Below, piece after piece: positions 1 to 15,578 of a stretch of DNA of 16,383 nucleotides; the stretch's first letter is position 1, and the number at the start of each line of letters is the position of its first letter. Where the stretch lies: the IMG/VR virus record IMGVR_UViG_2630968533_000009, one strand, 5' to 3'. The notes under the pieces were generated by a model. That model ran no database searches. It saw nothing but the letters and a program-made list of their open reading frames with translations, and had not been told where the DNA came from. Source of the stretch: a virus. Its lineage: Duplodnaviria; Heunggongvirae; Uroviricota; Caudoviricetes. The translations under genes were made by a program, and so were the position numbers.

Positions 1-348
1 TTACGAATTACTGCGGCGCTGTTGCTTTTCCGCATGTACGCGTTTCACAATCTTATAAATCCATTGCAGCGTCAGATTATATTTCTTCGCTAATTCGGCG
101 TAGTTGCGCCCATCGCACTCGCTATAGATTTGGTAGTCACGCTCCGATGCTCGTCCGGAGATCCCCTTAGGGAAATAGATGCTTTGTCCGCCCCAGTTAC
201 GCATCATTCGGTCGGCAATGGCAAAACCCACATTTTCTGCCGATGAACTGTCGAGATTGATGCTTTCAATCAGAACTTGCGATGCATGAAAAGCCAGGTC
301 GTTAATGATCTCCGGTGTCCGGGCCATCTCTTTTGATTTTCGTATCAT
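1..348 (-). CDS. Mor/C-family transcriptional activator (phage Mu middle/late activator-like)
   Basis: Complete 115-aa ORF: ATG at 348 with GGAG 7 nt upstream, TAA at 1..3. C-terminal segment (GGQSIYFPKG ... NYAELAKKYNLTLQWIYKIVKR) matches the helix-turn-helix region I recall for Mu Mor/C-type activators. Divergent from the lysis/tail genes. Confidence 0.8.
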   Translation of the reverse strand: MIRKSKEMARTPEIINDLAFHASQVLIESINLDSSSAENVGFAIADRMMRNWGGQSIYFPKGISGRASERDYQIYSECDGRNYAELAKKYNLTLQWIYKIVKRVHAEKQQRRSNS

Positions 349-569
349 TTTTCATCTCCATATATCTTGCATCCTGAATAAGACCCGATGCGTGTAAAAC
401 CACGGATATACGCTAAGCAGTTGTCATTACTGCTACTCAATACATTCAATAAACAAATAAACAATCACCAAAAATATAAACTTTTAATATTAATGAACGT
501 CATAAATTCACGAAATAAATATATTGTTTGGATTATGTTTCTTATCAACAGGAGTATCATTTTACACTA

Positions 570-589
570 TACTGTATACATATACAGTA
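570..589. promoter_or_regulatory. LexA (SOS) box, TACTGTATACATATACAGTA
   Basis: Read directly: CTGT-N8-ACAG with an AT-rich spacer, 19/20 match to the E. coli LexA consensus TACTGTATATATATACAGTA. Lies in the AT-rich region between the activator gene and the lysis operon. Confidence 0.8.
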
Positions 590-829
590 TTATTTTTACC
601 TGTAGAGTAAAAAGATCGTTTCCCTCACAGTCGCTGACTTTCTTAAACAAACTTTAAAAATCAAATAACTATCGACTATTCCTACGATCCACCATCATCT
701 TTCCCCTGCATAATGACGCGCTTATTAGCCTGGTCACCTTTTGCTCTTTAATTGCTGAGTCGATTTATTAGCGGGCTTGTTCATTTATAGAGAATCTATT
801 TTTTAAACTTATTTATTAAAGCTTTTTTC

Positions 830-838
830 ATTCTTCAC
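830..838 (+). promoter_or_regulatory. Candidate late-promoter/activator element ATTCTTCAC, copy 1, 48 nt upstream of the 886 start
   Basis: Same 9-mer, preceded by TTAAAG/TTAAAAG, recurs at 2181..2189 upstream of the tail operon. A chance match is possible (roughly 1 in 10 for regions of this size). Confidence 0.25.
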
Positions 839-885
839 TGGCGGGTTCTGACGACACTAAACGCTCACTTATCAGGAGATATCGT

Positions 886-1173
886 ATGAAAAAAGTCACT
901 TTTCCCCGGCTTTCCGGCTGGCTAGTCGCTTCCGCCGCGCTGTTTGTCGTGATCGGCTGGACCTCTTCCGCACAGATCCCGGTCGTCATTTATAAACTAA
1001 GCCTGGTTTCGCTTTCCGCGGTGCTGGGATACTGGCTCGATCGCAGTTTGTTCCCCTGGGCACGGCCTGACTCTTTTAGCCCCTGGAAGGAACCTCGTTG
1101 CTGCGCGGCGGCAATGATTCGCCGCGCCATCATCGTTGCCGCCGTCTGTCTTTCCGTCGCCTTAGGGCTATAG
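886..1173 (+). CDS. Small membrane protein, putative holin
   Basis: 95 aa with AGGAG 8 nt upstream. Three hydrophobic helix-length segments (WLVASAALFVVIGW, LSLVSLSAVLGYWL, IIVAAVCLSVALGL). Sits immediately upstream of the lysozyme gene. Confidence 0.45.
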   Translation: MKKVTFPRLSGWLVASAALFVVIGWTSSAQIPVVIYKLSLVSLSAVLGYWLDRSLFPWARPDSFSPWKEPRCCAAAMIRRAIIVAAVCLSVALGL

Positions 1174-1175
1174 TG

Positions 1176-1781
1176 ATGTGGCTGAAATATATCGCGTCTA
1201 TGATTATTTTCGTTCTTTTCCCGCTTAACGCCTCTGAACCGCCGCGAGCCTCTCTGGCATGGCGAAACGAACTAATTCGTACAGCTCGAGAAGTCTGGGG
1301 GCTGAATGCTCCAGTGGCCGACTTTGCCGGGCAATTACACCAGGAGTCCGCCTGGCAGCCAATGGTACGTTCCCCCGTTGGCGCACAAGGTATGGCGCAA
1401 TTTATGCCTGCTACAGCGACATGGATAAGCCAGTTGTATCCACAATTGCGTGAAAACAAACCGTATAACCCAACCTGGGCGATTCGCGCGCTGGTGCAAT
1501 ATGACCAGCATTTGTGGAAAAACATCTCTGCGAAAAATGATTGTCAGCGTATGGCGTTTACCCTAAGCGCCTATAACGGCGGTCAGGGGTGGGTTAACCG
1601 GGATAAAAAACTGGCTGCATCCAAAGGGTTAGATGCCACTAGCTGGTTTGGTCATGTTGAGCAAGTCAACGCCGGGCGCAGCGCCACGAACTGGCGAGAA
1701 AATCGTCGCTATCCAAAGATGATCCTCTATCAACATGCCGCCCGCTATTTACTCTGGGGACAGGCAAGCTGTCTTCATTAA
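1176..1781 (+). CDS. Lytic transglycosylase (SLT-domain) endolysin with N-terminal signal or signal-anchor segment
   Basis: Motifs QESAW (catalytic Glu-Ser), GMAQFMP and AYNGGQG match the SLT family signature. N-terminal MWLKYIASMIIFVLFPLNA is hydrophobic. Start set at ATG 1176 just after the holin stop (1171..1173) rather than the track's 1098, which would overlap the holin. Confidence 0.85.
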   Translation: MWLKYIASMIIFVLFPLNASEPPRASLAWRNELIRTAREVWGLNAPVADFAGQLHQESAWQPMVRSPVGAQGMAQFMPATATWISQLYPQLRENKPYNPTWAIRALVQYDQHLWKNISAKNDCQRMAFTLSAYNGGQGWVNRDKKLAASKGLDATSWFGHVEQVNAGRSATNWRENRRYPKMILYQHAARYLLWGQASCLH

Positions 1782-1793
1782 TCAGAGGGGCCG

Positions 1794-2108
1794 ATGAAAC
1801 TCAGTATCGATTTTTGGGAAGTGATCTCCCTTATGCTTTCCTTCGTTGGATTAATGTTTGCTGCCGGAAAACTGCTGTTAGCACAAATTGAAAAACGACT
1901 TAATGAGCGTTTTGAGTCTCTGGAAAATGCCCGCAGGGAATCAGAAACAAGTTGGTCGAAACTGGAAAGAGAATTTCTCGAATTTCGTGCCGAGCTTCCG
2001 CTGCATTATGTCCGCAGAGAAGATTATCTTCGTGGGCAAGCAGTATTAGAAGCGAAGCTGGATGCCTTATATAGCAAAATCGAGCTGTTACAACGTGGCA
2101 GTTATTGA
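1794..2108 (+). CDS. Membrane-anchored coiled-coil protein, lysis accessory (possible i-spanin-like)
   Basis: 104 aa with GAGGGG RBS. One N-terminal transmembrane segment (ISLMLSFVGLMFAAGKLLL) followed by a charged helical region. Last gene of the lysis cassette; no partner lipoprotein ORF found. Confidence 0.35.
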   Translation: MKLSIDFWEVISLMLSFVGLMFAAGKLLLAQIEKRLNERFESLENARRESETSWSKLEREFLEFRAELPLHYVRREDYLRGQAVLEAKLDALYSKIELLQRGSY

Positions 2109-2110
2109 AA

Positions 2111-2145
2111 AATCCCCACCCTTATGTAAGGGTGGGGATTTTTTT
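2111..2145 (+). terminator. Rho-independent terminator after the lysis cassette
   Basis: Perfect 14-bp stem AATCCCCACCCTTA / TAAGGGTGGGGATT with a 3-nt loop, followed by seven T residues (2139..2145), directly after the 2108 stop. Confidence 0.8.
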
Positions 2146-2180
2146 AACCATTCAATTTTTTCTCTAAATCACATTAAAAG

Positions 2181-2189
2181 ATTCTTCAC
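2181..2189 (+). promoter_or_regulatory. Candidate late-promoter/activator element ATTCTTCAC, copy 2, 64 nt upstream of the 2253 start
   Basis: Identical 9-mer to 830..838 with the same AAAG-type upstream context, located between the terminator and the first tail gene. Confidence 0.25.
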
Positions 2190-2252: not shown

Positions 2253-2708
2253 ATGGAAATTTTATCTGTAATGAATTCTGTTGTGACCAGATTACGTGAA
2301 CACAACTCCGAAATGGATATATTTATTTCATCTAAGGATGCCCAGAAATATATTCCACAGACACAACGAGTTGCAGTGATTATTAATTATAGCGGTTCTG
2401 TCTTTGCTACGCCCGAAAGCAGTAATGCCATCGTGCAACAGCAAATACTCCGCTTAACCGCCACCGTTATTGTTGGCAAAAATTGTGATGCATTAAACGC
2501 ACTTGATCACATACGCAGCGCATTGGGTGGCCTTCCGCTTCCTGATTGTGATCGTCTGCTTTGGCTTGAAAAAGAAATTAATACGGGTGAGAGCGGCGGT
2601 TTCTGCCGCTACATCCTGGAAATGGCGACCAGCTCGCTGTTTATCGCTGAACAGGAAAGCACGGATCTTCCCCTGCTTACGGAAGTTAACTACGAGGAAA
2701 CTGAATGA
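2253..2708 (+). CDS. Phage tail protein, Mu gp37-like (tail completion/terminator candidate)
   Basis: 151-aa ORF, first gene of the tail operon, stop overlaps the next start (ATGA). Assignment rests mainly on position two genes upstream of the sheath, as in Mu-like tails. Confidence 0.4.
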   Translation: MEILSVMNSVVTRLREHNSEMDIFISSKDAQKYIPQTQRVAVIINYSGSVFATPESSNAIVQQQILRLTATVIVGKNCDALNALDHIRSALGGLPLPDCDRLLWLEKEINTGESGGFCRYILEMATSSLFIAEQESTDLPLLTEVNYEETE

Positions 2709-2902
2709 AATACATCTACAACGGCCCAGCAAGCGGCGTCACCCTTGCCGATGGACAAGAAATCTTATTGTGGCCGAACAGTGAAATTGATCTGCCAGAA
2801 GACAACGAGTGGGTCATGACCATGATTGCCCGCAATCATCTGACTCCTGTCATCACTCAGGAAGAACAAAATAACGTAGAGGAAATTGTACATGGCAGCT
2901 AA
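2705..2902 (+). CDS. Small tail-associated protein preceding the sheath (DUF2635-like)
   Basis: 65-aa ORF translationally coupled on both sides. A small conserved gene in this position is typical of Mu-like tail clusters. Confidence 0.4.
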   Translation: MKYIYNGPASGVTLADGQEILLWPNSEIDLPEDNEWVMTMIARNHLTPVITQEEQNNVEEIVHGS

Positions 2903-4316
2903 TTATCTGCACGGTGTAGAAACTATTGAAATTGAAACCGGCCCGCGTCCGGTTAAAGCGGTAAAATCCGCCGTCATCGCTTTAATCGGTACATCCCCCT
3001 GCGGTCCGGTAAATAAACCAACATTATGCCTTTCTGAAAGCGATGCTGCGCAGTTTGGCTCGACTCAGGCTAACTTTACGATCCCACAGGCACTGAAGGC
3101 AATTTATGACCACGGTGCCGGTACGGTGGTGGTGATTAACGTGCTGGATCCGGCAAAACATGGCTCCAACATCAGCAATGAGAGTATCACTTTTGATGCT
3201 AACAACCAGGCGAAGCTCGCTCACCGCAATGTGCGTAACGTGGTACTAAAGCCCTCTTCATCAAATTCATCAACCTTTAACACCGCAGCATTTAGCGTAG
3301 ATGAACAAACAGGCATAATTACCCGTAAAGGAGCCGACATTCCTCCTGGTGCGAAAGTTTGTGCCTATTATTCCTGGTGCGACCCTACAAAGGTCACCGC
3401 AGCCGATATTATCGGTACCGTAAATACCGCAGGCGACCGCACGGGGATGAAACTCCTTCAGGACACCTATAACCTGTACGGTTTCTACGCCAAAATCCTG
3501 CTTGCTCCTGTGTTTTGTACGCAAAAATCGGTGACTACTGAGCTGATTGCACAAGCGGAAAAACTCGGTGCGATTACCTACATTGATGCCCCGATTGGGA
3601 CAACATTCCAGCAGGTATTGGCTGGACGCGGTTCGCAAGGGGCTATCAACTTCAATACCAGCTCTGATCGTGCGCGTTTATGTTACCCACATGTCAAAGT
3701 TTACGATGGCATCACTAACCAGGAAATTCTTGAGCCTCTCTCTTCGCGTGCTGCCGGGCTGCGTGCCAAAGTAGACCTCGAAAAAGGTTTCTGGTGGAGC
3801 AACTCAAACCAGGAAATTCAGGGTATTACCGGTATTGAACGTTCGCTTTCCGCAATGATTGATGATCCACAAAGCGAAGTGAATCAGCTCAACGAAAACG
3901 GCATTACCACTATTTTCAATAGTTACGGCTCTGGTCTGCGCTTGTGGGGTAACCGCACAGCGGCATGGCCTACCGTGACCCATATGCGTAACTTTGAAAA
4001 CGTCCGCCGGACAGGCGATGTAATCAATGAGTCAATCCGTTATTTCAGTCAGCAGTATATTGATATGCCGATTAATCAGGCACTTATTGACGCGCTGACC
4101 GAATCGGTAAATACCTGGGGCCGAAAACTGATTGCCGACGGCGCACTGCTTGGCTTTGAGTGCTGGTACGATCCGGCACGAAATTCACCGGCTGAACTCA
4201 GCGCCGGGCATTTATTGCTGAGCTATAAATTCACCCCGCCACCGCCGCTGGAACGTCTGACGTTTGAAACTGAAATTACTTCTGAATATTTAGTCTCTCT
4301 GGAGAGCAATAGCTAA
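2892..4316 (+). CDS. Contractile tail sheath protein
   Basis: About 474 aa. N-terminus MAANYLHGVETIEIETGPRP resembles the P2 FI / Mu L sheath N-terminus. ATG 2892 with GAGGAA RBS preferred over the track's TTG at 2886. Confidence 0.9.
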   Translation: MAANYLHGVETIEIETGPRPVKAVKSAVIALIGTSPCGPVNKPTLCLSESDAAQFGSTQANFTIPQALKAIYDHGAGTVVVINVLDPAKHGSNISNESITFDANNQAKLAHRNVRNVVLKPSSSNSSTFNTAAFSVDEQTGIITRKGADIPPGAKVCAYYSWCDPTKVTAADIIGTVNTAGDRTGMKLLQDTYNLYGFYAKILLAPVFCTQKSVTTELIAQAEKLGAITYIDAPIGTTFQQVLAGRGSQGAINFNTSSDRARLCYPHVKVYDGITNQEILEPLSSRAAGLRAKVDLEKGFWWSNSNQEIQGITGIERSLSAMIDDPQSEVNQLNENGITTIFNSYGSGLRLWGNRTAAWPTVTHMRNFENVRRTGDVINESIRYFSQQYIDMPINQALIDALTESVNTWGRKLIADGALLGFECWYDPARNSPAELSAGHLLLSYKFTPPPPLERLTFETEITSEYLVSLESNS

Positions 4317-4840
4317 TGGCTGGAAAAATTCAAATTAACCGTATTACCAACGCCAATATTTATCTCGATGGTAATAACCTTTTAGGTCGTGCAACAGAAA
4401 TTAAATTGCCGGATGTAAGTTTAATTATGCAGGAGCATAAAGCACTGGGCATGGTGGGTAAAATCGAACTCCCGGCAGGTTTCGATAAACTGGAGGGCGA
4501 AATTAAATGGAACTCCTTCTATCAGGACGTAATGCGTAAAACGGCAAACCCGTGGCAGGCGGTTGCATTACAGTGCCGCTCCAGTATTGATTGCTATAAC
4601 TCCCAGGGGAAAGCGAATCAATTAGCGCTAGTGACACATTTAACCGTGATGTTTAAAAAGAATCCACTGGGCACATTTAAACAGAATGAAAACCCGGAAT
4701 TCAGCAGCGCCTTTGGTTGCACTTATATTAAACAAGTAGTTGATGGTGAAACGCTGCTTGAACTTGATTATATGGCCAATATTTTCCGGGTTAATGGTGT
4801 GGATCAATTAAGTACCTATCGCAATAACATCGGTGGCTAA
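4316..4840 (+). CDS. Tail tube protein
   Basis: 174-aa ORF immediately after the sheath, start overlapping the sheath stop (TAATG). Size and position match P2 FII / Mu M-type tube proteins. Confidence 0.8.
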   Translation: MAGKIQINRITNANIYLDGNNLLGRATEIKLPDVSLIMQEHKALGMVGKIELPAGFDKLEGEIKWNSFYQDVMRKTANPWQAVALQCRSSIDCYNSQGKANQLALVTHLTVMFKKNPLGTFKQNENPEFSSAFGCTYIKQVVDGETLLELDYMANIFRVNGVDQLSTYRNNIGG

Positions 4841-4890: not shown

Positions 4891-5208
4891 ATGAAAGAAC
4901 ATTATATCTTGCAGTTTCCATTTACGTCGGCAGCAGGAAATAATATCGACACGCTGCAATTACGTCGCCTGAAAGTAAAAGATATGCGCAACGCCCGCCG
5001 GATCAGCGAAAAGCCAGAAGAGTGGGATGAACCGCTGATGGCGGCGATGACCGGACTGGTGCCAGAAGATTTAGCCGAAATGGATTTGCTGGATTACCAG
5101 GCATTGCAGAAACGATTTCAATCCATGCTTACCGTGGTTACAGAATCCTCCCCTGCTATGGCAGGCAATGGCGCTACTGGCGAGATGGTTTCGCTTTCCG
5201 CCCAGTGA
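4891..5208 (+). CDS. Tail assembly chaperone (gpE/gpG-like)
   Basis: 105-aa acidic ORF between tube and tape measure, the conserved chaperone position. AAGGA RBS. Confidence 0.5.
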   Translation: MKEHYILQFPFTSAAGNNIDTLQLRRLKVKDMRNARRISEKPEEWDEPLMAAMTGLVPEDLAEMDLLDYQALQKRFQSMLTVVTESSPAMAGNGATGEMVSLSAQ

Positions 5209-5282
5209 GATAGACGCCCTTACCGTCGATGACTTTAGCAACTGGCTGGATGAAGCCAGCGCCCAAATAAAAATCGAATATG

Positions 5283-5307
5283 ACTCGCAGACCTGATGTC
5301 TGCGAGT
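5283..5307 (+). other. Hairpin in the chaperone-tape measure spacer (10-bp stem, 5-nt loop)
   Basis: ACTCGCAGAC-ctgat-GTCTGCGAGT is a perfect inverted repeat. It covers the stop of the +1-frame extension of the chaperone. Confidence 0.5.
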
Positions 5308-5397: not shown

Positions 5398-7773
5398 TTG
5401 GCCAACGATATTATTACCCAGCTTCAGGCGCGTAATGAGACGTTGACGCAGGCAATAGCCCGTTACGGCTCACTCAACGCCAGAACATTGTTAACTCTCT
5501 CTACTCAGCAGGCGACAGTTATCAAACTAACGCAGCAGCTTGCCGATTCCGCTCTCCGCCTGGAGGAAAATAGCCGCAGCCGCGCTAATCTGATGGAGAA
5601 AACCCAAACATTTGCCGGGCAATTTAGCAAAGTATTCAATGTTGAAGCCCCCGACTGGAAGTTGCCGTATGAGTTTCAGGACAACATGGTCAATATGGCG
5701 ACCAAAGGTGGGATGAATGCTACAACCCGCGAGACGCTCAGCCTTAATCTGCGCGACTGGAGCATGGATTTTAACCAGCAGCAGACCACCTTACAGAACG
5801 CAGCCCAAACGCTGATCGAAGGCAATTTGTCGTCGATGCAGGATCTCAACCGTTATATGCCGGAGATCGCCAAAGCTGCCACCGCCACGCGCGAAAGTGC
5901 TGAAACGTGGGCGAATGCCGCGCTCGCGACTCATGATCGACTGAATATTGCCCCGGAAAATTTCCACGCCGCGCAAAACATGATGTACGGCATTAGCAAA
6001 AGCGGTGGGCCTGCCATTGCTGAACAAACGCAGTGGATAGAGAAATTTGCAGGTAAAACCGGCGCTCAGGGTCTGGAAGGTATGGCTGAACTGACTGCCG
6101 CCATGCAGATCGCAATGAAAAATGGGGCCAGCGCCAGTGCGGCGGCGGAGAATTTTGACCACTTTCTGCAAACCACCTTTTCGAAAAAAACCGATAGCTG
6201 GTTCGCCAGCCAGGGCGTCGATCTGCAAGGCTCTCTGCTTGAACATCAGCAAAACGGTATGGGTGTTAGCGAAGCCATGACTCATATCGTACAAATGCAG
6301 CTTGAGAAGATGAACCCGGCGATCCTCGACACCTTCAAACGTACTATGCAGATTGAAGATTTATCTGCTCGCAGCAATGCGCTGCAATCGATGGTGTCGC
6401 AATTTAATCTGGGCGAAATGTTCGGCGATGTGCAAACGGTGGAATTCCTGGCACCTATGCTGGCGAATATGGAGGAATATCGCCAGTTAAAAGCCTCTGC
6501 CATGCAAGCCACCAGCAAGAATCTGATTAACGCTGACTTTTCTGCGCAAATGGCCTCGCCCATTGAACAGACTAAAGCGTTACAGCTGGCATTAAATGAT
6601 TTATGGCTCAGCATTGGTTTGCAGCTTATGCCGGCGATTGGCGAGCTGGCACAAAGCCTTACGACGGTTATTCGCCAGTTCAGCGCCTGGCTACGCGAAC
6701 ATCCGGCGCTGGTGCAAAACATTGCGAAAATCGTCGGGGCGGTTTGGCTGTTTAACGGCGCGCTGAATGTTTTAAAGCTGGGCGCGAACCTCATCACCTC
6801 GCCGTTTATTCGTCTGGTCGATATCTTCCTGAAAGTCAAGGCAAGTCTGGCGCTCACAGGCGGGGCAAGTAAGATGCTATCAGCGGTTAAGTCATTGGGT
6901 GGCGGCGCAAAATGGCTAATGCAACTGCTTGGTCGTGGCCTGATTGGCGCACTGAAACAGGTAGGTCAGACCGTCTTCTGGTTGGGTAGGGTTTTATTGA
7001 TGAATCCCATTGGTCTGGTCATCACTGCGATTGCGGGCGCTGCTTATCTGATTTGTCGCAACTGGGAGCCTATCTCCAGGTTCTTTTCGACCATCTGGCA
7101 ACGTATCACCACGGCCTTTGACGGCGGCATTGCAGGAATTTGTCGGTTGATTCTCGACTGGTCACCGCTGGAGTTGTTCTATAGCGCCTTTTCCAGTGTG
7201 ATGAATTGGTTTGGTGTCGAGATGCCTGCAAGTTTTAGCGAGTTCGGCAGCAATCTTCTGGGCAGTCTGGTTGACGGCATAATGAATGCCTTCCCCGCTC
7301 TGAAAGGCATTATTGATCAGGTAAAAAACGCCATCCCAGACTGGCTAAAAACCACGATGGGTATTAGTACAGAAGGATCGGCTACAGCTATTACAAGCAC
7401 GACTAATACCGCATCCGTCTCCCCCGCGACCGTTGTTCCAGGCGTTGCCGGTGCGATTTTAACACCGCCGGTGGGCAAACAACTCGCGCCATCCGGCAAA
7501 ACGGCTACGCCGTCATCGGCGCCAGCGGCAAAAAATACAGCCGCCAAACCCGTATCTGCCTCTTTACCTGGTAAATCCGTAACCAAACCGGCGACGCTAC
7601 CCTCCCGTTCCTCAGGAAAAGTCCAGGTAAATTTTTCGCCACAAATTACCGTGCAGGGTAACGGACAAAACACCACTAAAGAGATTCAGAACGTGTTGAC
7701 GATGAGTAAACGCGAACTGGAAAGAATGATTAACGATGTAATGGCGCAGCAGCAGCGCCGGGGGTATGCCTGA
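5398..7773 (+). CDS. Tail tape measure protein
   Basis: 791 aa: helical N-terminal region, long central hydrophobic/Gly-rich section, Ser/Thr/Pro/Ala-rich C-terminal segment. Start appears to be TTG at 5398 (no in-frame ATG before an upstream TAA), so the start is less certain than the call. Confidence 0.85.
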   Translation: MANDIITQLQARNETLTQAIARYGSLNARTLLTLSTQQATVIKLTQQLADSALRLEENSRSRANLMEKTQTFAGQFSKVFNVEAPDWKLPYEFQDNMVNMATKGGMNATTRETLSLNLRDWSMDFNQQQTTLQNAAQTLIEGNLSSMQDLNRYMPEIAKAATATRESAETWANAALATHDRLNIAPENFHAAQNMMYGISKSGGPAIAEQTQWIEKFAGKTGAQGLEGMAELTAAMQIAMKNGASASAAAENFDHFLQTTFSKKTDSWFASQGVDLQGSLLEHQQNGMGVSEAMTHIVQMQLEKMNPAILDTFKRTMQIEDLSARSNALQSMVSQFNLGEMFGDVQTVEFLAPMLANMEEYRQLKASAMQATSKNLINADFSAQMASPIEQTKALQLALNDLWLSIGLQLMPAIGELAQSLTTVIRQFSAWLREHPALVQNIAKIVGAVWLFNGALNVLKLGANLITSPFIRLVDIFLKVKASLALTGGASKMLSAVKSLGGGAKWLMQLLGRGLIGALKQVGQTVFWLGRVLLMNPIGLVITAIAGAAYLICRNWEPISRFFSTIWQRITTAFDGGIAGICRLILDWSPLELFYSAFSSVMNWFGVEMPASFSEFGSNLLGSLVDGIMNAFPALKGIIDQVKNAIPDWLKTTMGISTEGSATAITSTTNTASVSPATVVPGVAGAILTPPVGKQLAPSGKTATPSSAPAAKNTAAKPVSASLPGKSVTKPATLPSRSSGKVQVNFSPQITVQGNGQNTTKEIQNVLTMSKRELERMINDVMAQQQRRGYA

Positions 7774-8726
7774 TGTATGCCGTTTTAGGAGAGATTGAAT
7801 TTAAGGTTGTCACATTCTGGGACGGCTTTAAAAGCACAATGGGCGTGGATTACGCCACACATGCCCGTATAGAAGGCAAACCCGGCGTGCAGTTTATTGG
7901 CGATAAGCTGGATATGCTGGCGCTGGAATTTTCCCTGCACAGCCAGTTTTGCCAGCCCACAACAGAGCTGAACCGACTGCGTGAAGCCATGCTTGCTCAC
8001 AAGGCGATGGCACTGGTATTTGGCAATGGCGATTATCGCGGCTGGTTTGTGATTACGGAGCTAACCGCCACCCACCAGCACACCGATCCCTGGGGCAATG
8101 TGATTGCCCAAAACGGAACGATGTCGCTCCAGGAGTACACCGGCGATCCTAAAAATCCACTTTTACCTCCGGCGATTACCACCCAGGAGCCCAACATCGA
8201 GGAAAAGGCGAGCGATTTTCCCGACAAGGTGGAGTCCTGGTTTGATCAGATATTAAACGCCATCGAAGAAGGTATGCGTAAGGCCAAAGAGATGCTGGAT
8301 GAACTGACACAAGCCATTGAAGATATTAAAAAAACGGTGGCAAAAGTGAAAGCAATGATTAAAGAGGCCAAAGCGTTAAAAGAAAAGTGTGAAAAGATAA
8401 TTACGTCATTGAAAAAGACAATCGACGCCATCGAAACCCTGTTTAAACAGCCAATGGATCTGCAAACGCTGGCAGGACTCCCAAAAGCGTTGTCGGCGCA
8501 GATTAAAACTTTACTGGGTAACATGCCAGGTATCCGGGACTGCGCCAATGACGCCAGTACACTGGTTGACCATGCTCAGGCGCTTTTCGACGACATTACC
8601 AGCGACATCGCCGAAGCGACGTTTGATAAAGCCGCAACGTTGGTTGATCAGGCACGAACAACGGTACAACAAACCACTCCCACAGTGAGCCAGCTTGCTG
8701 CCGCGACCATTACGAGGATCTGGTGA
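7773..8726 (+). CDS. gpU-like tail protein with a long C-terminal coiled-coil extension
   Basis: N-terminal ~130 aa (MYAVLGEIEFKV ... DY ... FIG ... LALEF ... GWFVITE) follows the pattern I recall for P2 gpU. The C-terminal ~185 aa are Lys/Glu/Ala-rich and heptad-like. Start overlaps the tape measure stop (ATGA). Confidence 0.6.
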   Translation: MYAVLGEIEFKVVTFWDGFKSTMGVDYATHARIEGKPGVQFIGDKLDMLALEFSLHSQFCQPTTELNRLREAMLAHKAMALVFGNGDYRGWFVITELTATHQHTDPWGNVIAQNGTMSLQEYTGDPKNPLLPPAITTQEPNIEEKASDFPDKVESWFDQILNAIEEGMRKAKEMLDELTQAIEDIKKTVAKVKAMIKEAKALKEKCEKIITSLKKTIDAIETLFKQPMDLQTLAGLPKALSAQIKTLLGNMPGIRDCANDASTLVDHAQALFDDITSDIAEATFDKAATLVDQARTTVQQTTPTVSQLAAATITRIW

Positions 8727-8935
8727 TGCGATACCTTGAACATATCACCACCGACGGCGAACGCTGGGATAATCTGGCATGGCATTACTACGGTGATGCG
8801 CTGGCTTATGAACGCATAATCGCCGCCAATCCACATGTAGCCATTTACCCGGTACTGCCTTCCGGTATTCAGCTCATTATTCCGGTCATTTCCGTCAATA
8901 AAACCTTATCGGAGATCCCACCATGGCTGAGATAA
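8726..8935 (+). CDS. Tail protein X (gpX-like)
   Basis: About 70 aa with GD/ER-WD ... YYGD ... ANP ... LPSG pattern resembling P2 gpX. ATG 8726 overlaps the upstream TGA; GTG 8723 is an alternative start. Confidence 0.7.
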   Translation: MRYLEHITTDGERWDNLAWHYYGDALAYERIIAANPHVAIYPVLPSGIQLIIPVISVNKTLSEIPPWLR

Positions 8936-9963
8936 GCGTAACTGGTGGCGTCTTTGCCACACTCACGCCCATTTTTACCCTCTGGTATGGGCATAAAGAT
9001 ATCACTTATGACATCACACCCTATGTCACCAGCATCAGTTACCACGACAGCATCAAAAACGAGTCGGATACCATCGCAATTACACTGGATGACACAGATG
9101 GACGCTGGATAAAAGAGTGGTATCCCGGCAAAGGCGATACGCTGGCGCTGCATATGGGTTATCAGGGAGAGAAGCTGCTCGATTGTGGTCAGTATATTAT
9201 TGATAAAATTGATATTTCAGCGCCACCTTCTACGGTAAATATTGATGGCATCGCCACTTCCGTCAATCAGGCGCTGCGCACCCGTAACAGCCAGGGTTTT
9301 GAAGAAACGACGCTTTCGGCTATCGCCAGCCGTATCGCACAAACTCACGGCCTAAAGCTGGTGGGCAAAATCGAGCCTCTGACAATTGACCGGGTGACAC
9401 AGTACGGCGAAACCGATGTTGGATTTCTCAAACGTCTGGCCAGTGAATATGGTTATGCCGTAAAAGTGACGACGAAAGAGCTGATTTTTTCACATTTACC
9501 CACGCTGCGCTGCCTGGCACCTGTGAAAAAGATCGACCGCAAAGACGTTTCGCATTTCACCTTCAAAGATACCATTAACCGTATCTACAAAAACGCCACC
9601 GTACAGCATCAAAATAGTAAGAAAAAAGAACTGGTTATCTACACTCACAACAGCCAGCAAAAACCGTCTGCCCGTGGAGTCGGCACCAGTGCCGACACGC
9701 TAAAACTGAACAGTCGGGCGACGGACGTTGGCGCAGCACAGGCAAAAGCCAACGCTGCACTCGACAGCCACAACGAATATCAGCAAACCGGAACGCTCAC
9801 AATGATGGGCTGCCCGGAACTGACGGCGGGCAATAAAATCGAGCTAACCGATTTTGGCGTGCTTTCCGGTCAATGGCTAATTGATAAATCGACTCACAGT
9901 TTTGTGCGCAGCGGCTATACCACTGAAATCGACGTGTCGCGCGGGCCAGCGACCAGCCAGTAA
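8923..9963 (+). CDS. gpD-like tail/baseplate hub protein
   Basis: 346 aa with DDTDG, TTLSAIASRIAQTHGLKL and ETDVGFLKRLA motifs matching the P2 gpD / Mu P family as I recall it. Confidence 0.85.
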   Translation: MAEISVTGGVFATLTPIFTLWYGHKDITYDITPYVTSISYHDSIKNESDTIAITLDDTDGRWIKEWYPGKGDTLALHMGYQGEKLLDCGQYIIDKIDISAPPSTVNIDGIATSVNQALRTRNSQGFEETTLSAIASRIAQTHGLKLVGKIEPLTIDRVTQYGETDVGFLKRLASEYGYAVKVTTKELIFSHLPTLRCLAPVKKIDRKDVSHFTFKDTINRIYKNATVQHQNSKKKELVIYTHNSQQKPSARGVGTSADTLKLNSRATDVGAAQAKANAALDSHNEYQQTGTLTMMGCPELTAGNKIELTDFGVLSGQWLIDKSTHSFVRSGYTTEIDVSRGPATSQ

Positions 9964-9972: not shown

Positions 9973-10674
9973 ATGAAAGGAGTAACCCGTCAAACGGGGA
10001 TTATCAGCGATATTGACGAAACCAGCGTTCGGGTGCGGGTCACGCTCCCGGAGTGTGACAATCTGAAGAGCAACTGGCTTGCGGTACTTCAACGCAATTC
10101 CCAGGACAATAAAGACTACTGGCTACCGGATATGGGCGAGCAAGTGGAAGTTCTGCTGGACAATAACGGTGAAGATGGCGTGGTGCTGGGCGCAGTTTAT
10201 TCTACGGTTGACACCGCGCCTGTAGCCTCGCGCGACAAACGTTACGTCCAGTTTTCTGATGGCGCAGCGTTTGAATATGACCGCAGCACGCACCAGCTGA
10301 CGATCAACGGCGGTATCGAGAAAATCGTGATTGAGGTTATCAACGGTACCTGCCTGACATCGCCCAACGTTGAGATTAAAGCCCAACAGGTCACCGTGAC
10401 TTCCGATACCGTCGATGTTAAAGCGACCGATGTCAGCATCGACGCCACTAAGGTCGAGGTTAAAGCAGCAGCAGTGACGGTAGATGCGCCCATGAGCACC
10501 TTTACTGGCAACGTCACGGTAATGAAAAAACTCACCTGGCTTGGCGGGATGGCAGGAAGTGGAGGCATCGGTAACGCAGCCACGATAACCGGCAATGTCA
10601 ACGTGATCGGCAACGTTCAGGCCAGCGGCGCATTGCAGGACAGCGGTGGCAACTCCAACCACCATTCACACTGA
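9973..10674 (+). CDS. Baseplate central spike (gpV-like)
   Basis: 233 aa with a strong RBS (AAGGAGG). N-terminal domain followed by a Val/Thr/Ala-rich beta-helix-like repeat region and a His-rich C-terminus (NHHSH). Confidence 0.8.
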   Translation: MKGVTRQTGIISDIDETSVRVRVTLPECDNLKSNWLAVLQRNSQDNKDYWLPDMGEQVEVLLDNNGEDGVVLGAVYSTVDTAPVASRDKRYVQFSDGAAFEYDRSTHQLTINGGIEKIVIEVINGTCLTSPNVEIKAQQVTVTSDTVDVKATDVSIDATKVEVKAAAVTVDAPMSTFTGNVTVMKKLTWLGGMAGSGGIGNAATITGNVNVIGNVQASGALQDSGGNSNHHSH

Positions 10675-10679: not shown

Positions 10680-10708
10680 AACCCGCCTGATGGCGGGTTT
10701 TCTCTTTT
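10680..10708 (+). terminator. Terminator-like hairpin between gpV and gpW genes
   Basis: AACCCGCC-tgat-GGCGGGTT (8-bp stem) followed by T-rich TTCTCTTTTT, inside the 98-nt gap between the two genes. Confidence 0.5.
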
Positions 10709-10772
10709 TAATCAATCAGTTTTCTAAATCGCTTTAATATCTCCACAGCCCGTTCAGGGCGAAAATACCCTC

Positions 10773-11132
10773 ATGAACACAAAAACACGCCCCTCAACGC
10801 TGCACTGGCAACCGGCCTTGCTGCGGCCTGAAGAATACGTCTGCGGACTGGATGATATTCACCAGGCAATACACATCATTCTGCGTACACCGCGCGGCAG
10901 TGATCCCCACAGACCGCTGTTTGGCAGCAACTTGTGGCACTACATCGATTACCCCATCGAGCGGGCTATCCCGCATGTGGTACGGGAGTCGGTGGAAGCC
11001 ATCCGCCAGTGGGAACCGCGCTGTCGGTTGCTGAAGGTGACACCAGTAATCGACGGCGAACATCTGACGTTACGTGTGCAATGGCGCGCCGCTGACGGCG
11101 TTATCAACTCAACGGAGGTGTTATGGCGATAG
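10773..11132 (+). CDS. Baseplate wedge protein (gpW/gp25-like)
   Basis: 119 aa with IHIILRTPRGS ... FGSNL ... WEPR pattern matching the gpW/gp25 family. Confidence 0.8.
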   Translation: MNTKTRPSTLHWQPALLRPEEYVCGLDDIHQAIHIILRTPRGSDPHRPLFGSNLWHYIDYPIERAIPHVVRESVEAIRQWEPRCRLLKVTPVIDGEHLTLRVQWRAADGVINSTEVLWR

Positions 11133-12100
11133 CCGAACCCAATTTTATTGACCGCGATCCTGCGCAAATTACCAGTGAGATGATTGCGCAATACGAAGAT
11201 GCCAGTGGTAAAAAACTCTATCCGGCACAGGCTGAGCGGTTGCTCATCGACCTGTTTGCCTATCGTGAAAACCTTGTACGCATCGCCATTCAGGAAGCGG
11301 CGAAACAAAACCTGGTCGCGTATTCCCGCGCGCCAATGCTGGATTATTTAGGAGAGCTGGTGGGCGTTCACCGTTTGCCTGCGCAGCCAGCAAAAACGAC
11401 GTTGCAGTTTTCGGTCGTCAGTGCGTATACCAGCAATATCCTGATTCCCCAGGGGACGCGGGCCAGTGCCTCTGATAGCGTGATGTTCGCCACCGATGAA
11501 GATGTTCTGCTTCCGGCCTGGAGTTTGCATATCGCCGTTCCTGCCACCAGCCTCGCAGCAGGTGAACAGGGTAACGGCTGGCAGCCTGCACAAATTAGCG
11601 CTCTGGTCGACAGGATTGGTCATTATGACATCAACGTAACCAACCTGACTGCGTCAACGGGCGGCTGCGGTGAAGAGAGCGATGACGCATTGCGCCAGCG
11701 TATCCAACTGGCACCAGAAAGCTTTAGTAATGCGGGCAGCTATGGCGCATACCGCTTTCATACGCTTTCTGTTAGCCAGTCGATTATTGACGTTGCAGTA
11801 CTGGGGCCGGACGAGGGATTGCCAGAAGGCTGCGTGGAGATCTACCCGCTAACGCTGTTTACCACCGCCGATCAGGAGACAACGCTGGCTGCGGCGCGTA
11901 AAGCGATTAGCCTCTGGACGCAACAGCGGCAGAAACATCTGGGGCAAGACATTGTGCCAAACCAGATAATCAAAGTGTTACAGGTCGATGGCGTCTATGA
12001 CGTTGCGCTGAACTTGCCTACAAAACGTATTTTGCAGGCGCATGAATGGGCGGAATGCACTGCAATAGACGTCACGATCGCCGGAGTTAGCGATGGATAA
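11123..12100 (+). CDS. Baseplate J-like protein
   Basis: 325 aa immediately after the gpW-like gene with overlapping start. Size and order match P2 gpJ / Mu baseplate J. Confidence 0.85.
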   Translation: MAIAEPNFIDRDPAQITSEMIAQYEDASGKKLYPAQAERLLIDLFAYRENLVRIAIQEAAKQNLVAYSRAPMLDYLGELVGVHRLPAQPAKTTLQFSVVSAYTSNILIPQGTRASASDSVMFATDEDVLLPAWSLHIAVPATSLAAGEQGNGWQPAQISALVDRIGHYDINVTNLTASTGGCGEESDDALRQRIQLAPESFSNAGSYGAYRFHTLSVSQSIIDVAVLGPDEGLPEGCVEIYPLTLFTTADQETTLAAARKAISLWTQQRQKHLGQDIVPNQIIKVLQVDGVYDVALNLPTKRILQAHEWAECTAIDVTIAGVSDG

Positions 12101-12809
12101 ATTGCTACCACCGCCGCCGCTTGCCAGCGATGAGCGTTTTTCGATTCTGGCAAATATCGCCGCCGAGCGTTTTGCCCAACTCGATCTGACGGCGTTGATG
12201 GTTTATCTGGTCGACCTGGTTGATGCTTCGGCATTACCAGCCCTTGCAGAACAATTTCACGTTCAGGGGTTGGAAGGTTGGTTATTTACCACCGATGAGC
12301 GGGAGAAACGCGAGTTAATTAAACAAGCCATTGAACTGCATAAATATAAAGGAACAATTTGGGCGGTGCGGCGGGTGCTGGAAATACTCTCCTTACCCGG
12401 AACTATTTCAGAATGGTTTGAATATGGGGGAAGGGCTTACTTTTTTAAGGTTGATATTACACTAGAGGAAAAAGGATTAAATGAAGATGAATTCAATGCA
12501 CTTATCACATTAATTCATGAATATAAAAATGTCCGTTCAAAGCTGGAAAGCATTGTTATTTGGCTTATTAATCGAAGCCCAATACCAGTTATTGGCAGTG
12601 CCATGCAAGGAGGGGAAGTCATTACAGTATTGCCTCCTGTTGCAGAAAGCCTCAGCCAGTCATCTGGAATATTTTTAGCGACAGGTTATTGTGTGGAGGA
12701 ATATATTCAACTACTACCTTATCAACCCGATCGACTAACACAATCCCAACCGATGAAGGTCGGCACAGGATACTGGAGCACCGAAATTATGTCTGTATAT
12801 CCGGAGTAA
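12093..12809 (+). CDS. gpI-like baseplate protein with extended low-GC C-terminal region
   Basis: N-terminus [16 protein letters not shown] is typical of the P2 gpI family. At 238 aa it is longer than P2 gpI, and the C-terminal part (about 12420..12720) is visibly AT-rich. Confidence 0.7.
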
Positions 12810-12812
12810 TAA

Positions 12813-14422
12813 TGGCAAGTGAATTTTTTACAATATTAACTGCTGCAGGCAAAGCCAAAATTGCCTCAGCACTGGCCGAGCAAAAACAGATCCGTCTGCA
12901 AACTATGGTAGTTGGCGACGGTAATGGTAAATATATCGAACCGACAGAAAGTCAGACCAAAGTAGTCCATGAGGTCTGGCGTGGTCAGCTCAATACATTA
13001 AAAATTGCGCCAGATAATCCGGCCTGGGTTATCGCAGAAGCGATTATTCCCGAACAAGTCGGAGGCTGGTATGTACGCGAAGTTGGGTTACTGGATACCG
13101 ACGGCACGATGGTCGCTATTGGTAAATTCCCGGAAACCTATAAGCCACGATTACCTGCGGGGGCCAGTAAGCAAATCGTTATACGCGCGGTCATGGAAGT
13201 CACCAATGCAGATGCGGTGACGCTTTTGATCGACCCTTCAGTCGTTGTGGCAACCAGGGAATATGTCGATGACGCGTTGAAAACACATCAGCAATCACGA
13301 AATCATCCTGATGCGACGCTGACACAAAAAGGTTTTACGCAGCTGAGTAATGCGACTAATAGCGATGATGAAACCAAAGCGGCCACGCCAAAAGCGGTAA
13401 AAACGGCATATGACCTGGCAAATAGCAAAGCTGCCACCAGTCATAATCATGCCTGGAATCAGATTACTGGTATCCCTGATGGTACACTGACGCAGAAAGG
13501 AGTCGTTAAGCTTAACAATACAACAAATAGCACCAGTACGACGGAAGCTGCAACACCAAGTGCGGTTAAGGCAGCGATGGATAAGGCTATTGCTGCGGCA
13601 CCGTCCAGCCATACCCATGCCTGGGGGCAAATAACAGGTATCCCCGACGGTACGCTGACGCAAAAAGGGGTCGTGAAACTTAATAATGCGACCAACAGCA
13701 CCAGTACGACGGAAGCTGCAACGCCGAACGCTGTTAAGGCAGCGATGGATAAGGCTATTGCTGCGGAAAGCTGTCCTGTTGGGATGCCTATTCCCTGGCC
13801 ATCTGATTCTGTACCTTCAGGCTACGCTCTGATGACAGGTCAGACATTTAATAAAACCTCCTATCCCAAACTGGCAATTGCATATCCATCTGGTGTTATT
13901 CCTGATATGCGCGGATGGATAATTAAAGGAAAACCATCCAGTGGGCGCGCTATATTATCTACTGAACTGGATGGAGTTAAATCACATAACCATACGGGCA
14001 GTATTTCGAGTACGGACTTAGGGACGAAATCTGTATCATCAATAGATCTAGGAACAAAGAACACTCAGTCATTTAATCATGGGATAAAAACAACAAATAC
14101 AGCAGGCGCGCATAGCCATGATAGTGGTTCTGGCGAAAGTAGTGAGGGGGGAAAACCTCGGTATGGTACTCGTGATAACACAACAAATAATTTTGGTTCT
14201 GGTGAATCAGATCATGACAATTACAAATTTAACACATCCACGGATGGAGAGCATGCACATTCAGTTAATGTTGGCTCACACTCTCACTCTGTTATTTTAG
14301 GGTCACATAATCATTCAATTGCCCTTGGTTCCCATAATCACTCCCTAACCATTAATAATACCGGCAACACCGAAAACACCGTCAAAAATATCGCATTCAA
14401 CTATATTGTGAGGCTAGCATGA
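12813..14422 (+). CDS. Tail fiber protein
   Basis: Conserved Mu S / P2 H-type N-terminal domain, three internal fiber repeats, collar-like segment ([11 protein letters not shown] ... [12 protein letters not shown]) and HxH-rich tip. Start set at ATG 12813 after the gpI stop; the track's 12689 start is an upstream in-frame extension. Confidence 0.85.
13306..13766 (+). repeat. Tandem tail-fiber repeats (about 56 aa / 168 nt period, three copies)
   Basis: Copies 2 and 3 (13469..13598 and 13637..13766) are near-identical in nucleotide sequence, differing mostly at synonymous positions. Copy 1 (from about 13306) is more diverged. Protein motif TLTQKG-x-LNNxTNS ... EAATP-x-AVK-x-A-x-D. Confidence 0.7.
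14264..14344 (+). repeat. Three tandem 27-nt repeats encoding x-x-x-G-S-H-x-H-S
   Basis: GTTAATGTTGGCTCACACTCTCACTCT / GTTATTTTAGGGTCACATAATCATTCA / ATTGCCCTTGGTTCCCATAATCACTCC, in frame within the fiber C-terminus. Confidence 0.7.
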
Positions 14423-15126
14423 ATACTTTTACCTTTTCCGATGAAGCTCAAATACTAACTGTATATAATTTTTCACAAGACTCCCAAGAATATATCGGTG
14501 AGTCTGATGCATACATTGCACCTAATACAGGCTTGCCAAATTATTGCACATTAATTTCACCTCCCGAAAAGGTTCCTGGTTTTACTCCAGTGTGGGAGAA
14601 TGAAACATGGAGACTTATTGAAGATCATCGAGGCCAAACTGTTTATAACAAAGTTGATGGTAGCCAGCTTATTATTCAAGAATTGGGCCAATTACCTGAA
14701 AATGTAACAGTCATTTCCCCGACAGGTTCTTTTGAACGTTGGGATGGTGAAAAATGGCAACCATCTATAACCGATGCTAAAGAGGCGAAATACTCTGCAA
14801 TCAAAAATCAACGCGATGCCATCACAACCGATTACATCATCATCAACAACCATCACTTCCACAGTGATACAAATAGCCGTATCCAACAGCTTTCACTCAC
14901 AAAAATGGGAGCGGAGAAAAAAATTCCGCCAGGTTTAATGTGGAAAACTAAAAATAATGGTCTGATTGAGTTAACCAACGAAATCGCTGCCCAGTTTGAA
15001 TCGGTCACCATGGATCACGATATGCGCTTGTTCGCAAACGCCCAGCGTCATATCGCGGCGGTGGAAGCACTGGACGATATTCAGGCGGTGCTCGACTACG
15101 ATTATTCAACAGGCTGGCAACCATGA
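14419..15126 (+). CDS. Tail fiber assembly chaperone (Tfa-like)
   Basis: 235-aa ORF directly after the fiber with ATGA start/stop overlap. AT-rich N-terminal two-thirds and a normal-GC C-terminal about 45 aa ending [10 protein letters not shown]. Confidence 0.6.
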
Positions 15127-15578
15127 GTAAAACCACTGTCTGGCTCGCTTGTTATAAGGGCCGAACAGAGCACCGTGGTATTGCCCGACTGGCTGACTGG
15201 CTTACCCGTAAAATCACACGCGGTCATTATTCCCACTGTGAATTAGCCGTTAAGCATGGTGAAAAGAGATACCTTTGTTACTCTGCATCACTGCGCGATC
15301 GCGGTGTACGCGGAAAGATAATGCCATTGCCAGCGGATAAGTGGGATATGCTGCCGCTCCAGGCTAGCCTTCAGGATGTGGAAACTTTTTTCCGTAAACA
15401 TGATGGCAAAAAATATGACTGGCGCGGAGCATTAGGAATTATTACCGGTAATAAAGAACAGCGCGATCGCCTGTTTTGCAGTGAATTTTGTGCTGAATTT
15501 CTGCAACTGAAGGAAAGCTGGCGCTATTCTCCAAACCACTTGTACGCTTTAGTCAGCAGCTGGCAATACCAGCAATAA
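15123..15578 (+). CDS. Hypothetical protein, possible LRAT / permuted NlpC-P60-like thiol hydrolase (accessory gene)
   Basis: 151-aa ORF translationally coupled to the fiber assembly gene (ATGA). Motifs YSHCELAV ... KHG and LFCSEFCAEF resemble the His ... His ... Cys order of that fold, from memory only. No signal peptide. Confidence 0.3.
   Translation: MSKTTVWLACYKGRTEHRGIARLADWLTRKITRGHYSHCELAVKHGEKRYLCYSASLRDRGVRGKIMPLPADKWDMLPLQASLQDVETFFRKHDGKKYDWRGALGIITGNKEQRDRLFCSEFCAEFLQLKESWRYSPNHLYALVSSWQYQQ

Follow-up and report, generated by a model that had tools for sequence, protein, structure and literature searches.

Interest in R-type tailocins comes from their promise as precision antibacterials and from their part in driving competition between strains, and the best-known native ones come from Pseudomonas, Pectobacterium, Burkholderia, and Xenorhabdus. 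The primary concern of this study is a contractile-tail locus of Escherichia coli, which makes up most of a 16,383-base stretch of DNA held as a tailed-phage record in IMG/VR (IMGVR_UViG_2630968533_000009); the whole stretch is referred to here as the window. The locus forms a chromosomal island beside lysC. Its most likely identity, and the reading best supported by the comparisons below, is that of an R-type tailocin, so far uncharacterised, from the BcepMu/carotovoricin lineage. Tailocins of this kind were already known, and the Salmonella counterpart of the locus was linked to carotovoricin in 2006.

Carotovoricin Er (Ctv) from Pectobacterium has been described as a Mu-type tailocin that arose from a defective prophage related to the Mu-like prophage ECA41, and according to the title of Yamada et al. 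(2006) it shares an ancestor with a Salmonella Typhi prophage. In the published Ctv cluster, which is flanked by tolC_2 and ybiB, the first genes are those for a holin and a lytic transglycosylase. Both DNA-damage induction and killing activity have been reported for Ctv; for the window locus, induction by DNA damage is predicted from a LexA box. Ctv resembles the window locus in lacking a head, in having the holin and lytic transglycosylase genes first, followed by gp37, gp38, sheath, and tube genes through to the fibre, and in combining conserved structural genes with a variable fibre locus. The site is different, since the E. coli locus lies at lysC. Control of Ctv runs from RecA through RdgA and RdgB, of which RdgB is Mor-like; a word-based search for Mor homologues gave only close relatives.

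The R-type pyocins of Pseudomonas aeruginosa are also headless P2-type contractile tails encoded with a lysis cassette, and their specificity is set by the fibre. Their control is triggered by DNA damage and is two-tiered, acting through a dedicated activator (PrtR/PrtN). As described, they differ from the window locus in having baseplate and fibre genes first, in having arisen independently from a P2/phiCTX-like phage, and in the use of the repressor PrtR rather than direct control by LexA.

The name tailocin has been used in E. coli before. Tantoso et al. (2022; PMC9205054) reported an “ST131-specific tailocin” in sequence type 131 (ST131), a lineage in which the window locus also occurs; s2-ST131 is a P2-like prophage with capsid genes that was scored intact by those authors, and s1-ST131, at another site, is what remains of a BcepMu-like prophage and includes head genes. 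The window locus is not the published ST131 tailocin, because the elements in PMC9205054 have head or capsid genes and lie at other sites, and the supplements of that paper contain none of the lysC-locus protein accessions that were searched for. A literature search found no paper describing or testing the E. coli locus as a tailocin.

Comparison with BcepMu and Chromosomal Site

The gene order of phage BcepMu is Mor, early genes, holin-SLT-Rz/Rz1-gp25-gp26, packaging and head genes, and then gp37-gp38-sheath through to the fibre. All BcepMu proteins were compared by tblastn with 48 kb of strain DFL.5, made up of the window and 16 kb on each side. Only gp01, gp21, gp22, gp25, and gp37-gp51 were matched, in colinear order. 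There was no match in the 48 kb for gp02-20 (early, transposition, and repressor genes), for gp26-36 (terminase, portal, MuF, MuG, protease, capsid, and adaptor), or for gp23/24 (Rz/Rz1) and gp52. Genes of a functional Bcepmuvirus (transposase A/B, repressor, terminase, portal, and major capsid) were likewise without matches. By this comparison the island is a BcepMu-type genome minus two blocks and minus the spanin genes. Because the first tail gene retained is the tail terminator, recognised by its match to PDB 2GJV, the deletion ends exactly between the head-tail adaptor and tail terminator genes.

The earlier note, made from the window sequence alone, had described a headless contractile-tail locus and had advised looking for head genes to the left of the activator gene. 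Head genes are ruled out there, the genes found being lysC and pgi, and the observation that the locus is headless stands on that result: genes for a head, for packaging, for transposition, for integration, or for replication are absent from the island and from the 16 kb to each side. The genes that the note had named were found by Pfam and PHROG scans at essentially the coordinates it gave. Its assignment to a Mu-like tail lineage was borne out in part. The regulator belongs to the Mor family and the parent is a BcepMu-type, Mu-like phage, so “Mu-like” fits the lifestyle of the parent and the regulator, but the tail itself is P2-type, as it is in BcepMu-like phages. The tail Pfam families are those of P2 (FII tube, GpU, X, GPD, V, W, J, and I), and the sheath, which is 71% identical to gp39 of Burkholderia phage BcepMu and 74% identical to that of the E. 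coli Bcepmuvirus PhiKM, gave no significant BLASTP alignment with L of phage Mu (E=2).

The likeness to BcepMu and PhiKM consists of colinear Mor, holin, SLT, gp25, and gp37 through gp51 genes, together with a late-promoter motif common to the window, PhiKM, and complete BcepMu-like prophages. The window differs from both phages in having no transposase, repressor, terminase, portal, protease, capsid, adaptor, or Rz/Rz1 gene, and in its fixed chromosomal position and probable vertical inheritance; it differs from BcepMu in that its fibre resembles P2 gpH and not gp52.

Several E. coli isolates, among them ECONIH1, DFL.5, E17, and MS14385, carry the window in their chromosome with 100% identity, and the identical sequence is present in several human clinical isolates. 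In DFL.5 the window lies between lysC and an accessory pair of genes, for a slipin and a nucleotidyltransferase of the RlaP family, and beyond this pair come yjbD and rluF. The 16 kb to the left hold malEFG, psiE, yjbEFGH, pgi, and lysC, and the 16 kb to the right hold RlaP, slipin, yjbD, rluF, and a sorbose phosphotransferase system. In K-12, lysC directly adjoins yjbD. In ETEC4088, the gap between lysC and yjbD is filled by a zeta-toxin-family gene and the RlaP/slipin pair in place of the tail island, and this gap is a variable hotspot.

Pairwise comparison with E. coli strains free of the tail cluster placed the left border of the island at the lysC stop codon, 54 bp to the left of window position 1, and the right border at window position 15577, just past the stop codon of the last island gene; from these borders the island is about 15.6 kb long. 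The right edge of 15578 given in the earlier note was thus exact, similarity to the tail-cluster-free strains resuming at 15577. The convergent gene that the note placed at 15592 and considered host-like does lie outside the island; it encodes the RlaP nucleotidyltransferase and is part of an accessory island of its own rather than of the core genome. No terminal repeats, att sites, or Mu-type ends were found at the island borders, and the window contains no tRNA or Rfam RNA. The RlaP gene (window 15592-16383) and the slipin gene (SPFH; 32389-33516 in L001, the DFL.5 locus) occur as a pair with about 90% identity in approximately 1450 further E. coli genomes that do not have the tail cluster, which rules the pair out as part of the element. 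It is also ruled out as a known defence system, since neither protein matches PADLOC.

Regulatory Sequences

The Mor-family activator gene (1..348, minus strand) encodes 115 amino acids, matches Pfam Mor over its full length (7e-38), and converges on lysC. The product is 49% identical to BcepMu gp01, 27% identical to Mu Mor, and 34% identical to Mu C. Between the Mor and holin genes there is a promoter-like element (559..589, strand unassigned), recognised by sequence conservation, that includes a LexA (SOS) box. The box, TACTGTATACATATACAGTA at 570-589, has one mismatch to the consensus; it is the sole match in the window within three mismatches, and none of 200 shuffled sequences gave a match. 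It is adjoined by an invariant CATTTTAC at 558-565. In six aligned loci from four genera (E. coli, Salmonella, two species of Superficieibacter, and Phytobacter) the LexA box and CATTTTAC are invariant or nearly so, and the surrounding sequence varies. A promoter scan allows a rightward reading, with a -35 of TTTACA (561-566), a spacer of 16 nucleotides, and a -10 of TACAGT (583-588), and the same element can be read leftward with a -10 of TAAAAT toward Mor.

Downstream of this element, three copies of a late-promoter motif were recognised on the plus strand. Motif 1, TTTTTTAAACTTATTTATTAAAG (799..821), lies 87 bp upstream of the holin start, has its TYTAAA-N5-TTAWWA core at 802-818, and is nearly invariant in the four genera. 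Motif 2, TCTAAATCACATTAAAA at 2163-2179, precedes gp37 and follows a terminator hairpin at 2108-2143 with a perfect 17-bp inverted repeat (whole feature 2108..2179, plus strand). Motif 3, TCTAAATCGCTTTAATA at 10723-10739, precedes W and follows a terminator hairpin at 10680-10699 with an 8-bp stem, six GC pairs, and a T-run (whole feature 10680..10739, plus strand). There are exactly three copies of the core in the window, each on the coding strand and just upstream of the start of an operon, a count that is not independent because the pattern was derived from those three sites. The motif recurs on the same strand and at equivalent positions in dozens of BcepMu-like loci that were not used in its definition. 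For example, it stands before gp37 and W in Pectobacterium loci, and before the head protease, chaperone, and W genes in complete BcepMu-like prophages and PhiKM. Motif 3 is kept across genera, in PhiKM, in Pectobacterium, and in Photorhabdus prophages, and the 23-bp block near the holin gene was not found upstream of the Pectobacterium, Lonsdalea, and Brenneria holins.

The promoter and leader near gp37 in headless loci align with the promoter and leader near the protease gene in complete phages, and in Brenneria alni the head-protease promoter and leader are joined to gp37 exactly at its start codon. Because the two leaders align, the head genes appear to have been excised from behind their own late promoter, which would now drive the tail genes.

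Mu Mor and C activate promoters through sites centred near -43. For the window we propose a similar scheme, with Mor under the control of LexA and the three operons activated by Mor, motif 1 being the putative Mor-dependent promoter of the lysis operon. The arrangement of these elements suggests SOS induction, then Mor, then the lysis and tail operons.

Two further sequences in this region were considered. The open reading frame (ORF) at 388-657 is probably no gene: as a regulator gene it was rejected, since it has no family match, lacks conservation in the other genera, and runs across the AT-rich operator region. The leader that separates the LexA box from late promoter 1 contains, at about 618-650, a block AAAAAGATCG..TCAC that includes a GATC (Dam) site; E. 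coli, Salmonella, and Phytobacter share this block, and it is absent from Superficieibacter.

Conservation, Selection, and Headless Relatives

The order Mor-holin-SLT-gp25-like-gp37-gp38-sheath is also found in two Superficieibacter species and in Phytobacter, in every case beside pgi-lysC, and the Salmonella counterpart, STM4198-STM4219, lies beside lysC as well. Every gene has its full length in each of E. coli, Salmonella, Superficieibacter, and Phytobacter. When E. coli is compared with Salmonella, the ratio of nonsynonymous to synonymous substitution rates (dN/dS) is 0.098 over 11.5 kb and ranges from 0.04 to 0.24 for single genes, lysis genes included; the Mor gene has a dN of 0.071 in this comparison, and the gene for a 104-amino acid membrane protein in the lysis region has a dN/dS of 0.05. 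Values of dS are 1.37 in the island, 1.20 in lysC, and 0.71 in pgi. A neutral remnant is unlikely because dN/dS is low while dS is like that of the flanking core genes, and the shared lysC site in four genera together with this dN/dS indicates a locus kept by selection at a fixed position. The divergence fits residence of the island at lysC since about the split of Escherichia and Salmonella; replacement by recombination through the conserved flanks is the alternative. Many Escherichia albertii proteins were among the matches of the homologue searches.

The Salmonella locus is orthologous to the window locus, with the same site and gene order, 77% nucleotide identity, and 60-96% protein identity. 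It shares the LexA box and the late motifs, and its STM4215 is the tail terminator of PDB 2GJV. It differs in having other fibre alleles, an intact J, other right-hand neighbours, and a gtrABC O-antigen glucosylation operon between V and W (16227-19062 of locus L087, from serovar Infantis; STM4204-4206 in LT2), exactly the point at which nothing but a terminator and late promoter 3 is present in E. coli. Possibly, gtrABC alters the lipopolysaccharide of the producer itself and so guards it against its own particles. STM4200, the Salmonella fibre gene, is used as a polymerase chain reaction marker for serovar Typhimurium, which fits the variability of the fibre.

For a wider comparison, one genome per species was scanned with a sheath alignment, which gave 80 loci that were sorted by tblastn. 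Complete BcepMu-like prophages are present in many of the scanned genomes. A headless locus with the order holin-SLT-Rz-gp25-gp26-gp37-gp38-sheath was found in every sampled Pectobacterium species and in Samsonia, with sheaths 75-76% identical to that of the window. The gene content of the Pectobacterium loci fits the published Ctv cluster, and they carry the same late motif upstream of gp37 and W as the window. They have no Mor gene within 10 kb upstream and keep Rz and gp26, whereas in the E. coli locus both Rz/Rz1 and gp26 have been lost and a Mor gene is present, equipped with a LexA box of its own. As the site, the retention of Rz and gp26, and the adjacency of Mor all differ, the E. coli locus and Ctv are related but probably result from separate head-loss events.

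There are at least five distinct headless configurations in the BcepMu-like phage lineage, so head loss has been repeated within it. In Brenneria alni, B. izbisi, Lonsdalea (three loci), and Lelliottia the transposase is kept and heads are absent; a Paraburkholderia metagenome-assembled genome likewise keeps transposase A/B with the head genes gone, and some such loci retain Mor and the repressor. These transposase-bearing headless elements look like intermediate stages of tailocin domestication. Nine loci of Chromobacterium species are headless with Mor directly upstream of gp37-gp38-sheath and no lysis genes between, and are another independent configuration of the same tail lineage.

Function and Alternative Explanations

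The comparisons make it probable that the island is a domesticated headless BcepMu-type tail module, that is, an R-type bacteriocin locus of the carotovoricin lineage, of which the copy in the window may be inactive. The earlier note had left the choice between a tailocin and a prophage remnant undecided. For the family as a whole the tailocin is favoured by the lack of head genes on both flanks, the lysC site in four genera, the low dN/dS, the SOS box and late promoters, and the kinship with the Ctv-like Pectobacterium loci, and a remnant may fit the copy in the window, where J carries a deletion. This and several other points weigh against a working tailocin. The J gene of the window lacks 138 bp (46 amino acids) in frame relative to intact alleles, with the junction of the alignment at about 11848-11853 and a 6-bp microhomology, GCTAAC, at the junction; an otherwise identical locus encodes a J of 371 amino acids. 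The Pfam Baseplate_J match covers positions 1-169 of 255 in the window and 1-254 of 255 in the intact form, positions 170-254 of this conserved domain dropping out of the match, and because the deletion occurs in only 7 of the 195 carriers the copy in the window may be inactive. In strain Q5 (locus L092) the tape measure is frameshifted (6240-8614) and the fibre is fragmented (13749-14987), which could be real decay or an assembly error; the carriers EC10 and 4314 are intact. The locus is dispensable and often lost, as only 195 of 5426 complete E. coli genomes retain it, always on the chromosome and in single copy. The lysis region has no ORF with a lipobox anywhere, Rz/Rz1 had no match in the 48 kb, and a slip site for the E' product of the tail assembly chaperone was sought and not found. 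The direction of the LexA-controlled promoter is ambiguous, being rightward, leftward, or both, and the count of three late motifs in the window has the circularity described above. The literature search found no experiment with particles or killing for the locus in either E. coli or Salmonella.

Several of the same points would be expected if the island were an inert remnant of an old BcepMu-like prophage, functionless at least in the window strain and in the course of being lost. The damaged J domain, the defects of Q5, the absence of the locus from 96% of complete E. coli genomes, the lack of a spanin, and the lack of any published activity in the literature found are all consistent with such a relic. 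A neutral relic of this age would, however, be expected to be full of stop codons, whereas the ORFs are intact in four genera, J is intact in 188 of the 195 E. coli carriers, the operator and promoter motifs are conserved, and dN/dS is about 0.10, lysis and regulator genes included, although the island has diverged as far as the core genes that flank it; the inert remnant is thus an unlikely account. Some other job for the tail is more doubtful still. An injection device aimed at eukaryotic or other cells could have the YiiX-like hydrolase encoded by the last gene as a conceivable cargo or effector, but this protein shows no signal peptide or evidence of tail association, Pfam and PHROG scans of the window proteins turned up no AAA+ ATPase, Afp-type gene, or toxin cargo, and in contrast to an extracellular contractile injection system of the Afp/PVC type, no ORF has Afp-type domains and a lysis cassette is present. 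A tail donor for head-only or tail-defective phages or satellites would find a possible partner in the second BcepMu-like element, with head genes, elsewhere in ST131 genomes, and in the second place matching the fibre in most carriers. The head-tail adaptor gene gp36 is deleted, however, the Salmonella, Superficieibacter, and Phytobacter loci are conserved regardless of any resident BcepMu-like phage, and a lysis cassette with an SOS box is the pattern of a tailocin, so that either form of this alternative is quite improbable. That the window is part of a complete prophage, with head and packaging genes just outside it, was a formal option because the window starts at the Mor stop codon; the 16 kb on each side consist of core and accessory chromosomal genes with no BcepMu head or transposase homologue, which leaves this option without support and next to no credence.

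If the R-type bacteriocin reading is correct, its working can be sketched as follows. In an undamaged cell, LexA would occupy the operator at 570-589, of which the sequence and conservation are observed, and would shut the overlapping promoter in whichever direction it fires. DNA damage would lead to LexA cleavage and to synthesis of the Mor-family activator. By analogy with Mu Mor and C, Mor would then bind at and turn on the three late promoters, whose motif, positions, and conservation are observed, and so drive the holin, endolysin, and gp25-like genes, the genes from tail terminator to spike, and those from baseplate wedge to fibre. Baseplate, tape measure, tube, sheath, and terminator would assemble into DNA-free contractile particles with P2-type fibres. 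The holin and SLT endolysin would lyse a fraction of the producers and free the particles with no spanin encoded, and the variable fibre would bind receptors of related strains, after which contraction would puncture the envelope and kill, as in R-pyocin and carotovoricin biology. Release without spanins is the least well-supported step of this model. As to its history, the prophage would have lost the early/transposition block and the packaging/head block, with fusion of the late promoter of the head operon to the tail terminator gene.

A wider claim can be made, that Escherichia, Salmonella, Superficieibacter, and Phytobacter share an ancient, vertically inherited, and working R-type bacteriocin, wired to LexA through Mor and spanin-free, in which the fibre and, in Salmonella, gtr shape strain competition in the gut, including that of ST131. 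This claim is put forward tentatively, with the balance tipped slightly against it. If it is true, E. coli and Salmonella, the two best genetic models, have an SOS-controlled tailocin of their own with swappable P2-type fibres, which could help to explain competition among clinical lineages. The conversion of a transposable phage into a weapon would have required two deletions and the reuse of the head-operon late promoter, and would have happened several independent times in one lineage.

Lysis Genes

The earlier note had described a lysis cassette at 886..2108, and a holin and an SLT endolysin are present, both under purifying selection, without a spanin pair. The holin (886..1173, plus strand) has 95 amino acids and multiple transmembrane domains, matches Pfam Holin_2-3 (1e-26) and a PHROG holin family, and is 50% identical to BcepMu gp21. 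The SLT lytic transglycosylase endolysin (1176..1781, plus strand; Pfam SLT, 1e-14) is 53% identical to BcepMu gp22 and has a hydrophobic N-terminus that could be a signal or signal-anchor-release (SAR-like) sequence. The third gene (1794..2108, plus strand) encodes the 104-amino acid membrane protein, with an N-terminal transmembrane domain and a coiled coil; it is a homologue of BcepMu gp25 (46% identical, E=2e-35). Two other identifications, with an Rz-type spanin and with Mu gp25, are unsupported, since Rz/Rz1 is missing and the protein has no similarity to Mu gp25. The ORFs at 1888-2049 and 2062-2229 have no lipobox. Because there is no spanin or lipoprotein ORF, release may be inefficient or may take another route.

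Tail Genes and Fibre Variation

Genes were called from the ORF list with Pfam and PHROG scans, and the contractile-tail set is complete, with terminator, sheath, tube, chaperone, tape measure, hub, spike, wedge, fibre, and fibre chaperone; all of the following genes are on the plus strand. The tail terminator of the BcepMu gp37 family (2253..2708; Pfam Gp37, 4e-32) is the first tail gene kept, and its product matches PDB 2GJV, a hexameric protein of S. Typhimurium, with E=3.5e-54; 2GJV is counted among the crystal structures of tail terminators. It is followed by a 65-amino acid gp38-like protein (2705..2902), which is 46% identical to BcepMu gp38, matches PHROG 895, and has the position of Mu gp38. 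The tail sheath (2892..4316) matches Pfam Phage_sheath_1 and 1C, and the tail tube (4316..4840; Pfam Phage_tube, 4e-56) is 69% identical to BcepMu gp40.

The tail assembly chaperone region (4891..5296) consists of chaperone E (4891-5208; Pfam Phage_TAC_7, 2e-19) and a GpE-like extension (5075-5296), with a match to PHROG 8286 at 2e-20, a weak Pfam GpE match, and 39% identity to BcepMu gp42. Frame analysis placed the extension in the +1 frame with respect to the ORF of the chaperone, the arrangement of BcepMu gp41/gp42, whereas the P2 E/E' extension is in the -1 frame. Together, the two are a probable programmed-frameshift product. A canonical -1 slippery heptamer was considered for the frameshift and rejected, none being found and the extension sitting in the +1 frame. 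A hairpin is present at about 5289-5307, just after the extension.

The tape measure protein (5398..7773) matches Pfam PhageMin_Tail and BcepMu gp44 (E=1e-57). The gpU-like tail protein (7773..8726; Pfam Phage_P2_GpU, 6e-34; PHROG 788) has a C-terminal half that is coiled coil, and tail protein X (8726..8935) matches Pfam Phage_tail_X at 2e-23. The gpD-like baseplate hub (8923..9963; Pfam Phage_GPD) is 44% identical to BcepMu gp47, and the gpV-like spike or baseplate assembly protein (9973..10674; Pfam Phage_base_V) corresponds to BcepMu gp48. In the last operon are the gpW/gp25-like baseplate wedge (10773..11132; Pfam GPW_gp25; 61% identical to BcepMu gp49), the gpJ-like baseplate wedge with the deletion described above (11123..12100; Pfam Baseplate_J), the gpI-like baseplate protein (12093..12809; Pfam Tail_P2_I, 3e-33), the tail fibre of the P2 gpH type (12812..14422; Pfam Phage_tail_fib, Phage_fiber_2, and Collar), and the tail fibre assembly chaperone (14419..15126; Pfam Caudo_TAP and DUF4376; PHROG 1807 and 105).

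The fibre is the specificity determinant and is 47-52% identical to peduovirus fibres. The fibre, its chaperone, and the adjoining part of gpI are mosaic among strains; strain 4314 has another fibre allele, and the allele of the window is present in only 100 of 196 carriers, with others matching only the 3' part. This mosaicism resembles the diversity described for the tail-fibre locus of carotovoricin. Within the fibre gene of the window there is a tandem duplication of about 165 nucleotides (13437-13766), with copies 84% identical. In most carrier genomes the fibre region finds a match at a second place, and in ST131 genomes there is also the BcepMu-like remnant s1-ST131 with its head genes. 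It is possible that fibres are exchanged or that another protein of the Mor/C type cross-activates the locus.

The last island gene (15123..15578) encodes a 151-amino acid YiiX-like cysteine hydrolase, orf151, with the permuted papain fold of the NlpC/P60 superfamily. The structure is predicted with confidence (predicted local distance difference test score, pLDDT, 85), His38 and Cys119 are invariant in 54 homologues, and the gene is kept in Salmonella as STM4198.

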